IMG/VR virus record: IMGVR_UViG_3300020044_003294
Location: 1 to 26,953 of that record
From: a virus
Lineage: Duplodnaviria > Caudoviricetes
Strand: one strand, 5' to 3'
DNA: 26,953 nt
The position numbers and the translations under genes were made by a program. Positions 9,478-23,933 of the stretch are shown piece after piece. Every line of letters begins with the position of its first letter. Positions within the stretch are counted from its first letter, which is position 1. The notes under the pieces were generated by a model. The model ran no database searches and was not told the DNA's origin. It saw only the letters and a list, made by a program, of their open reading frames with translations.

Positions 9478-11245
9478 TAACGTACACATACTAAGTCTAT
9501 CGGCTTACACAACGCCTGTAATCCAAGAATCCAAGCGTGATAATTGGGTTGATTTTGGCGAGGACAATGATTTCTATTCTTTTTTGATAGATAGATACAC
9601 GAACTCCACAACGAACTCGGCAATTATAAACAACATTTCACGTCTTGTTTATGGAAAAGGATTGTCTGCTTTAGATGCTAATCGTAAGCCTAACGAGTAT
9701 GCTCAAATGATGAGTTTATTTAATAAGGATTGCGTTCGTAAAATGGTTATTGATCGCAAGATGTTAGGTCAATTTGCTATCCAAGTACACTACAACGACA
9801 AACACGATAAGATTCTAAAGGCGTATCATATGCCAGTGAACTTACTTCGTGCTGAGAAATGCAATAAAGACGGAGATATCGAAGGGTATTATTACTCTGA
9901 TGATTGGACAGACGTTAAGAAATATGCTCCCGTTCGTTATTCAGCGTTCGGAACATCGAAAGACAAGGTAGAGATTCTATTCTGTAAACCTTATGCAGTA
10001 GGGATGAAGTATTATGCTTATCCTGATTATCAGGGAGCTTTACCATACGCACTTTTAGAGGAGGAGATTGCTGATTACTTAATCAACGAAGTACAAAACG
10101 GATTCTCAGGAACACGTGTGATTAACTTTTCTAATGGAGTTCCAACAGAAGAACAACAAGATATTATATCATCTAAGATTAAAGCACAGTTATCAGGTGC
10201 TAGAGGTACAAAAACGATTATTTCATTCAATGACAATGTAGAAACAAAAACTACAATTGATGATGTTCCTTTAAACGATGCTCCAGAACACTACACTTAC
10301 TTATCTGAGGAGTGTTTACGCAAGATTATGCTAGGTCATAACGTTACTTCTCCTTTGTTATTTGGGGTTGCTTCATCAAATGGATTTAGTTCTAACGCAG
10401 ACGAGCTTAAAAACTCTGCTATCTTGTTTGACAATATGGTTATTCGTCCAATGCAAGAGGAATTATTGGAAGCGTTTGATTCTATTCTAGCAGTAAACGG
10501 AATCTCATTAAAACTTTACTTCCGTACATTACAACCTTTAGAGTTTACAGACCTTGAAAACACGCAAACCGAAGAAGAGGTAGTTGAAGAAACAGGTGCA
10601 GATGGAACTCAGTTAAGTTCAATGGATAAAGAAATTGCTGATGCGTTGATTGAATGTGGTGAAGAACCAAGTGAAGATTGGGTTTTAATTGATGAATTTG
10701 AAGTTGATTACGATCAAGAAGATGAAATTGACTTAGAAATTGAAAAAGCAAACAATCCTAGTCAATCTTTATTGTCTAAAGTTTACAATTTTGTGAGTAC
10801 AGGTACTGCTAATCCTAGAGCTAAATCAGAACAAGATAAAACGATTGATGGATTCAAGTTTATCACAAGATATCGTTACGAAGGAGGTATTAAAGATAAT
10901 TCTCGTGAGTTCTGCAAAAAGATGGTAGCTGCTGATAAAGTATATCGCAAAGAGGACATACAAAGAATGAGTGGAATGGCAGTTAACGCAGGTTGGGGGC
11001 CAAAAGGTGCAGATACCTATGATATTTTCCTTTACAAAGGTGGAGGTGCTTGTCATCATAAATGGATGCGTCAAACTTTTGTTGCTTACGAACAAGGACG
11101 TGGAATTGATCCATTAAGTCCAAACGCAAAAACAATTAGTACAAACAAAGCAGAGAAAGCAGGTTACCGAGTGAGAAATCCACAACAAGTTGCTATGCGT
11201 CCAATTGATATGCCTAATCAAGGCTTTTTACCTAAAAACAATTAA
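9470..11245 (+). CDS. Portal protein with acidic linker and C-terminal Cys/His (MuF-like) domain
   Basis: About 360 aa portal-like region (STTNSAII, HNVTSPLLFG, VIRPMQEELLEAF), then acidic linker and SREFC...YKGGGACHHKW. Confidence 0.7.
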   Translation: MSDNVHILSLSAYTTPVIQESKRDNWVDFGEDNDFYSFLIDRYTNSTTNSAIINNISRLVYGKGLSALDANRKPNEYAQMMSLFNKDCVRKMVIDRKMLGQFAIQVHYNDKHDKILKAYHMPVNLLRAEKCNKDGDIEGYYYSDDWTDVKKYAPVRYSAFGTSKDKVEILFCKPYAVGMKYYAYPDYQGALPYALLEEEIADYLINEVQNGFSGTRVINFSNGVPTEEQQDIISSKIKAQLSGARGTKTIISFNDNVETKTTIDDVPLNDAPEHYTYLSEECLRKIMLGHNVTSPLLFGVASSNGFSSNADELKNSAILFDNMVIRPMQEELLEAFDSILAVNGISLKLYFRTLQPLEFTDLENTQTEEEVVEETGADGTQLSSMDKEIADALIECGEEPSEDWVLIDEFEVDYDQEDEIDLEIEKANNPSQSLLSKVYNFVSTGTANPRAKSEQDKTIDGFKFITRYRYEGGIKDNSREFCKKMVAADKVYRKEDIQRMSGMAVNAGWGPKGADTYDIFLYKGGGACHHKWMRQTFVAYEQGRGIDPLSPNAKTISTNKAEKAGYRVRNPQQVAMRPIDMPNQGFLPKNN

Positions 11246-15537: not shown

Positions 15538-15545
15538 TATATTTG
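15538..15545 (+). promoter_or_regulatory. Bacteroidota -7 promoter element TATATTTG in front of candidate sRNA
   Basis: Matches TAnnTTTG; -33 element is imperfect. Confidence 0.55.
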
Positions 15546-15548
15546 CAG

Positions 15549-15600
15549 TTCATAGTTATTTGGTTTTAAATTAGGGGTATCGAAAGGTATCCCTTTTTTT
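15549..15600 (+). ncRNA. Candidate ~50-nt trans-antisense sRNA
   Basis: Bounded by -7 element and terminator; 18/20 complementary to the ERF gene start region 21744-21763. Confidence 0.55.
15573..15600 (+). terminator. Rho-independent terminator with GAAA tetraloop
   Basis: AGGGGTATC-GAAA-GGTATCCCT plus T-tract. Confidence 0.85.
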
Positions 15601-15736: not shown

Positions 15737-15767
15737 TTTGGTGGTTAAGAAATAGTCTTTATATTTG
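15737..15767 (+). promoter_or_regulatory. Strong early promoter, Bacteroidota sigma-70 type
   Basis: TTTG (15737-40), 19-nt spacer, TATATTTG (15760-67): full -33/-7 consensus; AT-rich upstream. Confidence 0.85.
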
Positions 15768-15801
15768 TATATAATTAATTCACAAACAAAAATTAAAAGC
15801 T

Positions 15802-15975
15802 ATGAAAACTGCAACATTTAAATTTTACGCAATGACTTCCGAAGGTTTAAAGTACACGATTATTACTTGTCCATTATTAATGGTGTTAAGTAGTGGTGGA
15901 ATTTTAGTAGAGATGGAAGGTAAACCACAAGGTAAGTGTATTTCTGCCGAAAATGTTATATCAATTAACAATTAA
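15802..15975 (+). CDS. First early gene, 57 aa hypothetical (MKTATFKFYAMTSEGLKYTIITCP...)
   Basis: Translated by hand; A-rich start 35 nt after the promoter. Confidence 0.7.
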   Translation: MKTATFKFYAMTSEGLKYTIITCPLLMVLSSGGILVEMEGKPQGKCISAENVISINN

Positions 15976-17462: not shown

Positions 17463-17470
17463 TATATTTG
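17463..17470 (+). promoter_or_regulatory. -7 promoter element TATATTTG of the replication operon
   Basis: TAnnTTTG match in the intergenic gap. Confidence 0.7.
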
Positions 17471-17473
17471 TAC

Positions 17474-17555
17474 AGGTGTTGCAGACCTTATAAAAATATT
17501 ATTGAAAGTCCATTAGGGAGTAGTGCTGCAACCACGAAACTTAATGGGCTTTTTT
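17474..17555 (+). ncRNA. Structured leader RNA: two kissing hairpins, loop-E motif, terminator-like U tract
   Basis: Complementary 7-nt loops GTTGCAG and CTGCAAC; 13-bp outer stem; AGUA/GAA internal loop. Confidence 0.65.
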
Positions 17556-17574
17556 ATTGCTTAAAATGTTGCAG

Positions 17575-21728: not shown

Positions 21729-21736
21729 TATATTTG
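21729..21736 (+). promoter_or_regulatory. -7 promoter element TATATTTG of the recombination operon
   Basis: TAnnTTTG in a 35-nt gap before the ERF gene. Confidence 0.7.
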
Positions 21737-21758
21737 CATCTAATAAAAACAAATCACT

Positions 21759-22283
21759 ATGAAAAATTTACTAAAAATTCAGGCAGAATTAAAATGTCCA
21801 AAAGGTAGCTTTAACTCATTCGGTAAGTACAAGTATCGAAGTGCTGAGCAGATTCTTGAATCACTTAAACCATTACTACAAAAACACGAATCAACATTAG
21901 TTCTAACTGATGACATTATTCAAGTAGGTGATAAGCTATTTTTAAAAGCTACTGCAACACTTTCTGATGCTGATAGTGTAATTCATTCAAACGGATTTGC
22001 AGAGATGAGTGAACACAAAGGAATGTCATCTGAGCAATGTACAGGAACTGCGTCTAGTTATGCACGTAAATACGCATTAAATGGATTGTTCTTAATTGAC
22101 GAAACGGAATCAGATCCCGACTCAAAGGACAATACTCCATCACAACCAAAAAAACAAACCTTAGACGCTAAGAGATTCCAAGACGCAGTCAAAGCAGTAA
22201 CTGAAGGAAAGATAACACGTGAGTCTTTAGAAAGCAAGTTCACGTTAACGGATGGTCAAATTGATATATTGAACGCGTTATGA
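21759..22283 (+). CDS. erf: ERF-family single-strand annealing protein
   Basis: FGKYKYRS and GTASSYARKYALNGLF signature. Confidence 0.85.
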   Translation: MKNLLKIQAELKCPKGSFNSFGKYKYRSAEQILESLKPLLQKHESTLVLTDDIIQVGDKLFLKATATLSDADSVIHSNGFAEMSEHKGMSSEQCTGTASSYARKYALNGLFLIDETESDPDSKDNTPSQPKKQTLDAKRFQDAVKAVTEGKITRESLESKFTLTDGQIDILNAL

Positions 22284-22951
22284 AAATTAGATGCTCTGCT
22301 ATAGGAAAAATTATGTCAGCTCCGAGAAACAAATCGGAGTTGCTTAGTCAAACTGCAAAGACATACATTCACGAGATGGTCTTGCAGGATAAATACGGAA
22401 TCAGAAAAGAATTTAGTTCACGCTACACGGACAAAGGAAACGAAGTAGAAAACGAATCAATCAACCTAGTTAATGAAGTTCTGGATGTAGGATTTATTTA
22501 CAAGAACGAGGAGCATTACGAGAACGATTGGATTACAGGAACACCTGACGTAAACACGGAGCAAGTGTTGTTAGACGTAAAAAGCTCTTGGGATGGATCT
22601 ACGTTTCCTTTCTTTGAAACTGAGATACCTACAAAGGACTATTACTACCAACTTCAAGGATATATGTGGCTAACAGGTAAACAACAGTCAATGTTATGTT
22701 ACTGCTTAGTTGACACACCTGAACTAATGGTTGAAGACGAAATAAGAAGAACGCACTGGAAACTTAATCTAATGGAAGAAAGCTTAGAGCTAAGAGATGA
22801 GATCCAGAAGAAACATATTTTTTCACACATTCCTAAGAATCGCAGAGTCAAAGTATTCTACGTACAAAAAGACGAAGCAGTTATAGAACGAATCAAAGAA
22901 CAGGTAGAACTTTGTCGTGAGTATTATAACACCTTAATTAATTTCCTATGA
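22280..22951 (+). CDS. YqaJ/lambda-type exonuclease
   Basis: RCS, G.EVE, GTPD, DVKS (PD-D/ExK), YYYQLQGYM; paired with ERF. Confidence 0.8.
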   Translation: MKIRCSAIGKIMSAPRNKSELLSQTAKTYIHEMVLQDKYGIRKEFSSRYTDKGNEVENESINLVNEVLDVGFIYKNEEHYENDWITGTPDVNTEQVLLDVKSSWDGSTFPFFETEIPTKDYYYQLQGYMWLTGKQQSMLCYCLVDTPELMVEDEIRRTHWKLNLMEESLELRDEIQKKHIFSHIPKNRRVKVFYVQKDEAVIERIKEQVELCREYYNTLINFL

Positions 22952-23582: not shown

Positions 23583-23933
23583 ATGAAAATAGATTGGGAT
23601 GATTTCAATGTTAAAGCTGATTATGTCATCGAAACAATTGTCAAACCACAAGTAGCAAAATACGAATTAAGTAAACAATTAAATAAACATAAAATGGAAA
23701 ACAAGTTAAACACGGGAGCAATCTTCAAAAACACGAACAAGAAAGCTGAGAATCACCCCGACTACAAAGGAAAGGTAAACGTAAACGGTAAAGAAATGGA
23801 AGTTGCGTTATGGGTAAAACAAGGCAAAGCAGGTTCATTCTTCTCTGCAGCTTTCTCAGAACCTTACGTTGCACCTGAAAAAATGGAAAGAGTTCCTGTA
23901 TCTGATTCAATGGATGACGATTTACCTTTCTAA
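23583..23933 (+). CDS. Small single-stranded DNA-binding-like protein (core probably starts at 23694)
   Basis: GAIFKN...HPDYKG...ALW beta-rich core and C-terminal DDDLPF tail typical of SSBs. Confidence 0.7.
   Translation: MKIDWDDFNVKADYVIETIVKPQVAKYELSKQLNKHKMENKLNTGAIFKNTNKKAENHPDYKGKVNVNGKEMEVALWVKQGKAGSFFSAAFSEPYVAPEKMERVPVSDSMDDDLPF

Follow-up and report, generated by a model that had tools for sequence, protein, structure and literature searches.

A predicted stand-alone gene for a small RNA (sRNA) of about 50 nt lies directly behind a 344-aa gene in a virus record of 26,953 bases (Caudoviricetes, IMGVR_UViG_3300020044_003294), the whole of which is called the window here. The element has a promoter box, an anti-start region and an intrinsic terminator; across relatives of the phage this anatomy is conserved, the stem of the terminator covaries, and the seed changes in step with the start of the ERF gene, which encodes a single-strand annealing protein. 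The sRNA likely represses ERF and a few other early proteins.

A -7 element, TATATTTG, stands right after the stop codon of the 344-aa gene and, as had been proposed in an initial annotation made from the window alone, is followed by the anti-start 20-mer and then by a terminator with a GAAA loop (coordinates in Table 1). Passages of PMC6847099 give a -7 consensus of TAHHTTTG and, for Flavobacterium johnsoniae, a box-to-start distance of 4-5 nt; because of this distance, the RNA is predicted to begin at the seed and to have its length of about 50 nt. A -33 TTG at 19 nt was not found in the promoter of the RNA, where TTG is seen at 15 and 22-23 nt, and this was not counted against the promoter because the same passages describe the -33 motif as weak. 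The 66-nt stretch that contains the element has a predicted fold of -13.5 kcal/mol (z -2.53), and the 5' part of the sRNA is largely unpaired in the predicted ensemble. The terminator probably also ends the late transcript.

The reverse complement of the 20-mer matches the ERF start, ungapped and in register with its ATG, at 18 of 20 positions. The match claimed for nearly the whole 5' untranslated region plus start codon of ERF, 6 kb away, was therefore confirmed in the window, where the next best place on the + strand reaches 14/20. A value of 18/20 was obtained in 1 of 300 dinucleotide shuffles. When compared with real gene starts, the match is rarer than 1%, yet not unique, as there are, among 1613 distinct non-ERF starts of relatives, 4 that have 18/20 too, all four belonging to early genes. 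Pairing with the sRNA would cover nearly all of the ERF leader, the 5' end of the ERF mRNA is predicted to be unstructured, and a box is present within 45 nt in 71% of 51 ERF starts.

The exact match is not kept in relatives: with the 20-mer of the window, none of the ERF starts of 40 relatives reached 18/20, the best being 17, and 10 of the 40 scored at least 16. The loss of the ERF match that an ungapped comparison of 20-mers in relatives seemed to indicate was superseded by scoring that is aware of wobble pairs and bulges. The conserved feature is the cognate pairing, and not the string of the window's 20-mer.

To follow the element across relatives, loci holding the 344-aa anchor protein, which we take to be a phosphoesterase, were fetched. 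About 1000 stretches hold the anchor gene; among the 80 loci fetched, 76 reach its C-terminus, the 4 truncated ones having been removed before elements were counted, and the window brings the set to 77. Box and terminator were found directly after the phosphoesterase stop in 49 of these 77 sequences, with CATAG in the single-stranded part in 44 of the 49. Some copies stand behind an inserted gene or elsewhere, with a box of their own, and in locus L056 seed and terminator are kept and the box is lost. In an alignment of 44 elements, which leaves out the short seed type and five other elements (L001, L035, L041, L305 and L306), positions T1, A2, T5-T7 and G8 of the box are invariant in all 44, partly by construction, as the aligned set was gathered with a promoter pattern. 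In the terminator, all nine pairs show two-sided changes over the 44 sequences, with 93.4% of the cells paired, and covariation as high was seen in none of 500 shuffles. The covariance model gave one strong copy each in the window and in four complete relatives; the fifth complete relative has the short seed type, which was left out of the model, and its best match was 0.

Two arrangements around the element were noted on the way. In L013 (11023-11730) and L019, an extra gene is located between the anchor gene and the sRNA, the end of the anchor gene appears repeated before the promoter box, and the insertion looks like a homing-type event. In L443, a complete relative, a repressor-like helix-turn-helix gene (10673-11215, minus strand) lies directly behind the sRNA and faces away from the early operon.

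The preference for ERF was assayed by pairing the element of each genome with the called gene starts of the same locus (15-47 per locus), using RNAduplex with wobble and bulges allowed. The element and an ERF start occur together in 50 loci, with 46 distinct pairs; 3 duplicate contigs and 7 loci whose elements are of other types were set aside. In these 50 loci, ERF was the best-pairing called start in 25 and among the top three in 36, and its mean relative rank was 0.09, compared to 0.62 for shuffled seeds. By gene family, the median relative rank was 0.05 for ERF (top three in 38 of 51) and 0.15 for the first early gene, which starts at 15802 in the window (top three in 25 of 60). The SSB gene ranked at 0.88 and a major capsid-like gene at 0.78, and the sigma-like gene, equally promoter-proximal, at 0.71, so that it is not a target. 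The motif CTATGAA, reported earlier at the starts of 15802, 15986 and 22948, is present at all three; as targets, the family of 15802 held up in the ranking and that of 22948 did not (median relative rank 0.46), whereas the start of the 15986 gene was miscalled by the open reading frame (ORF) caller in the called-start set of the window.

Further collections of elements behaved similarly. Two additional scans yielded 18 further distinct pairs, 16 of which have ERF in the top four and 6 in first place; these pairs had been chosen for the anti-AUG core, which favours all AUG starts alike. In loci that contain an ERF start, six elements recovered only through the covariance model placed ERF at rank 1, 1, 1, 3, 4 and 4 of 21-41; elements recovered in this way include the fourth seed type, and 7 other matches examined had no ERF start in the locus. 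In two variants lacking CAU, ERF still came first, by way of the upstream block. As a control, 23 other promoter-plus-terminator elements were scored, and ERF entered the top three in none of them. Pairing of the RNA with the replication-gene leader was not consistently better than that of shuffles. Contexts that match the seed are concentrated in early genes, ACGCT preceding ATG in 13% of early versus 0% of late starts in its clade. A separate case is L035 (5380-5459 and 11089-11604), where a non-ERF gene of the unknown family phrog_21613 is found behind an ERF-like leader; this locus has two promoter-terminator elements, the second of which pairs with the start of the phrog_21613 gene (-12.9), while other early starts pair better.

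The seed and the ERF leader change together. Four seed types were found (after CAU: AGU, AGC, AAU and CGU), each facing a matching ERF context. Over 62 pairs, position -1 is A:U in 57 and C:G in 2, position -2 is G:C in 33, A:U in 15 and G:U in 13, and position -3 is U:A in 35, C:G in 24 and U:G in 3, with only 4 of the 186 cells unpaired. A second block further upstream also changes in step with the ERF leader. The complementarity to the ERF start is thus conserved through compensatory changes, and this check, which the initial annotation had proposed, did not refute its reading. Own-clade pairing is stronger than cross-clade pairing in all three large groups, with energies, self pairs and L362 excluded, of -17.4 versus -11.7/-11.1, -13.6 versus -10.3/-10.6 and -15.2 versus -6.4/-4.6. 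Two ERF subfamilies split by a very long branch each carry both main leader types, always matching the seed; therefore, the ERF coding region was exchanged while the leader followed the RNA. Sequence alone can rarely fix the targets of trans-acting sRNAs; in the present case, dozens of genomes show RNA and target changing together. The comparative support for a specific phage-internal target is unusually good, expression and function being predicted.

How such an RNA could act is suggested by what is known of initiation in these bacteria. Passages of PMC6847099 report that initiation in Bacteroidota is promoted by A at -3, -6, -12 and -13, and those of PMC11697453 that FopS-10, an sRNA of Bacteroides, blocks translation of susC by pairing next to the start codon. 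Host RNA polymerase would transcribe the sRNA from a box of the kind that also serves its targets, and the RNA would thereby accumulate alongside them. Its pairing in trans would span the leader and the AUG both of the ERF operon of the phage itself and of the first early genes, and by covering the AUG and the A-rich initiation positions it would, as FopS does, block ribosome loading. Late transcripts leaving the lysis block would stop at this terminator as well and may supply additional antisense RNA in the late phase of infection. As a probable outcome, production of ERF-exonuclease and of the first early proteins would have a ceiling and be shut off with a delay, an effect that the late transcripts may strengthen; a probability of roughly 0.74 is given to this reading. 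The wider proposal of the initial annotation, trans-acting silencing of early genes, host genes or superinfecting relatives, is narrowed by this evidence, which favours the phage's own genes (ERF and the first early genes).

Several observations weigh against an early-gene brake of this kind. The element is missing directly after the phosphoesterase stop in 28 of the 77 sequences, although in some of them it is located elsewhere. Position -4 pairs in only 39 of 62. The independent events are few, with 1, 1 and 4 seed changes on the exonuclease tree at -1, -2 and -3, and in a formal test the independent pairs numbered only 2, which does not suffice for significance. When all ATGs on both strands of six genomes were ranked, ERF stood at 1, 1, 5, 10, 25 and 40 of 800-912, and in only 25 of 36 loci did the early starts, taken as a group, outperform the late ones. 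Many of the duplexes are of modest strength, with -11 to -14 kcal/mol in the clade of the window, and all energies are RNAduplex values without target accessibility. In one Flavobacterium genome, about 1% of 320 starts show a pairing that equals or exceeds that of ERF (median 0.9% over 70 RNAs; 1.2% for the RNA of the window), which also speaks for targets in the host. Lastly, the RNA data for the element consist only of contigs of mixed relatives from run X1, which cover part of the region, one of them ending at 15600; these contigs carry neither strand nor ends, runs X2 and X3 are near empty, and no inference was drawn from X1.

A tentative suggestion, compatible with the early-gene brake and adding to it, is that the RNA serves mainly for superinfection exclusion, in which a resident RNA silences the first early genes and the ERF operon when the incoming phage shares its seed type. 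The four seed types with their weaker cross-clade pairing would fit this role, as would the choice of promoter-proximal genes, which are expressed first, the repressor-like gene right behind the element in one complete relative, and the precedent of c4 heteroimmunity of P1/P7 described in part of PMC12197685. However, drift with compensation also gives clade-specific seeds, and G:U wobble lets some seeds cross-react (a GT seed on GCT-type ERF starts, -14.4). Nor is a resident state evident, since no tyrosine integrase was found in five of five near-complete relatives and no member of an integrase family among the 60 extra ORFs of three of them. A shade less probable again is the broader view that, in non-integrating Bacteroidota phages, a 50-nt anti-start RNA is the main early-gene brake and the seed types are RNA-based exclusion groups. 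If this were true, incoming kin that share the seed of the first phage would have their recombination operon and first early genes shut down by its RNA, kin with another seed would not, and the seed type would decide which relatives can co-infect and recombine.

It is unlikely that the main targets are host mRNAs, for example those of outer-membrane receptors, and that the match in the phage stems from a shared start-codon context. Such targets would be expected from FopS, which acts on host susC mRNAs and has the TTCATAGT core and the architecture in common with the sRNA, and one look-alike in a Flavobacterium genome lies beside ORFs that, by eye, have no obvious phage character. Nevertheless, host targets leave unexplained why the seed changes track the phage's own ERF leader, and CGCT, the context that one of the seed types matches, precedes ATG in 0% of 320 starts of the host genus, against 15% of the early starts of the clade concerned, in a comparison made on a Flavobacterium genome that stands in for the true host.

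Slightly less credible than host targets is a late-operon terminator with an inverted copy of an early leader, both kept alike by DNA recombination or conversion and without any RNA function. The usual position of the element at the 3' end of the late block and the ERF and exonuclease encoded by the phage would agree with it. In contrast, the deviations from full complementarity at -2 and -3 are G:U (16 cells, most from one clade) and never A:C, as RNA pairing predicts, the promoter box moves with the seed to other places, and the 23 other promoter-terminator elements have no such match. An expressed gene that begins at this site on the minus strand is very improbable: the reverse complement does resemble a Bacteroidota start, with an ATG at 15553-15551 on the minus strand, but its frame has 12 aa in the window and is not conserved over 66 loci, where the length spans 1-93 aa (usually 4-13 aa) and the frames differ, and both the promoter box and the U run are oriented for the + strand.

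In a search for described relatives of the sRNA, an Rfam scan of the window with 4227 families, the C4 model included, gave 0 matches at E up to 1. With FopS (RF04319), a 151-base stretch scored 15.1 bits (E 3.2) versus a gathering score of 56, and with GibS (RF04182) there was no match at E up to 10, the element having about 50 nt compared to about 140 nt with R1 and R2 seeds. The positive control L102 scored 112.3 bits with GibS and 40.8 bits with FopS; this viral contig carries, at 18-149 on the minus strand, a GibS-like RNA (cut-off 115) and, in addition, a BTnc049-like RNA.

According to passages of PMC11697453, the FopS family comprises paralogous sRNAs of Bacteroides thetaiotaomicron, with 12-15 copies per genome, which bind RbpB and repress susC-type mRNAs, and one copy of the family is found in a Caudovirales phage. 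As far as these passages describe FopS and GibS, the phage sRNA resembles them in its -7 promoter, which by sequence is of the canonical sigma-ABfr type, its single-stranded 5' region followed by an intrinsic terminator and its similar size, as well as in an 8-nt TTCATAGT core complementary to the start codon and in pairing at the first gene of an operon, which is predicted here. In a comparison of the R1/R1' seeds, this core is common to the published FopS consensus, the flanks differ in the alignment to the model, and other clades change the core. On the other hand, the phage RNA is single copy per genome instead of 12-15, it is predicted to act on recombination and early genes of the phage itself rather than on host susC genes, and its seed has diverged into four types along with the target. 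By its features, the sRNA would work like FopS/GibS, and by Rfam score it is not a member of the family. The initial statement that it was not recognised as a described family thus stands as far as the Rfam matches and the missed FopS cut-off are concerned, and has to be qualified by its resemblance to the described FopS/GibS kind of Bacteroides.

The phage RNA also recalls the c4 RNA of P1/P7, which, in the accounts given in parts of PMC12197685 and PMC8198154, is a phage RNA acting at the translation start of a phage gene, with sequence differences that set heteroimmunity. The similarity is one of logic, with no kinship in sequence or structure: in these accounts c4 is located in the operon of its target, controls an antirepressor and belongs to temperate phages, whereas the sRNA is a stand-alone unit 6 kb from the recombination gene in phages without a detected integrase. 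VpdS, PreS, 24B_1 and sar, presented in passages of PMC12197685, are likewise short base-pairing phage RNAs that tune phage development, but all of them belong to phages of proteobacteria. 'Bacteroid' occurs 0 times in the main text of that review, and its passages name no recombination operon as a target. A search of the open-licence PMC and bioRxiv literature found no description of a phage-targeting anti-start RNA in Bacteroidota phages.

The hosts of Bacteroidota phages lack Shine-Dalgarno initiation, and these results suggest that the phages control their early genes through FopS-like anti-start RNAs, a layer that is missed by protein annotation. Control of the recombination operon bears on how mosaic phages limit or time gene exchange, and the natural seed-target pairs are ready-made for a reporter matrix in Flavobacterium.

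Nearly all genes of the window are on the + strand. A structural and lysis block, of which the 344-aa gene is the last, is followed by small early genes and replication genes, and then by NinG, ERF, exonuclease, SSB-like, sigma-like and terminase genes. TAnnTTTG boxes precede 15802, the replication gene, ERF and the sigma-like gene, and the leaders are A-rich; because of these boxes and leaders, the sequence points to a Bacteroidota host. Among 11 genome contigs with the anchor gene, 7 were binned with metagenome-assembled genomes (MAGs) of Bacteroidota, three of them labelled Flavobacterium, which is a weak hint in the same direction.

Table 1. Coordinates of the sRNA unit, its predicted targets and associated genes in the window
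Feature	Position	Strand	Basis or remark
-7 promoter box TATATTTG of sRNA gene	15538..15545	+	sequence; directly abuts TAA of 344-aa gene
Predicted ~50-nt sRNA	15550..15600	+	5' end at 15550-15551 inferred from box-to-start distance
Anti-start region: UCAUAG seed and U/G-rich block against A-rich leader	15549..15568	+	18/20 to 21744-21763
Intrinsic terminator: 9-bp stem, GAAA loop, U run	15573..15600	+	hairpin 15573-15594, T run to 15600
Main predicted target: ERF leader and start codon	21744..21763	+	-13.9 kcal/mol with predicted RNA
-7 box of recombination operon	21729..21736	+	sequence; gives ~18-nt leader
Secondary predicted target: start of first early gene (15802)	15788..15806	+	-13.3 kcal/mol
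-7 box of first early gene 15802	15760-15767	+	sequence
Upstream anchor gene, 344 aa	14503..15537	+	phrog_704 'DNA repair exonuclease'-like, E 1.4e-68; last gene of late/lysis block
ERF single-strand annealing protein	21759..22283	+	PF04404, E 6.7e-33, PHROGs; first gene of recombination operon
Exonuclease	22280-22951	+	recombination operon, after ERF (PHROGs)
SSB-like gene	23583-23933	+	after ERF and exonuclease (PHROGs)

Look-alikes of the element were also detected elsewhere. A scan of viral contigs with the pattern TATATTTGN{3,9}TCATAG, covering 2 of 64 parts, gave 121 matches; as only 10 of these have a terminator, matches to the pattern by itself are mostly due to chance. Box, anti-start core and terminator are found together in the viral contigs L096, L124, L139, L141, L145, L163, L176, L177 and L196. 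In 61 genomes of the genus of the Flavobacterium MAG, the covariance model gave 1 match, a count that is no evidence of absence, as 80 of thousands of candidates per genome were scored. A pattern search in 5 MAGs returned one element with a terminator. The look-alike L454 (G046:C1:2309586-2309658), which scores 49.7 bits in a genome of the Flavobacterium genus and has neighbours without obvious phage character by eye, may be a host FopS-like RNA.

A further RNA structure was observed in the window at 17463-17556, in the leader of the replication-initiator gene. No Rfam match was obtained for this leader. It has a -7 box followed by a 5' segment that can pair with part of the loop of a terminator hairpin, and in 36 of 36 look-alikes, collected with motif filters, a helix of 6-8 bp is kept in many compensatory forms. 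This leader is likely a pseudoknot or an antiterminator switch, separate from the sRNA.
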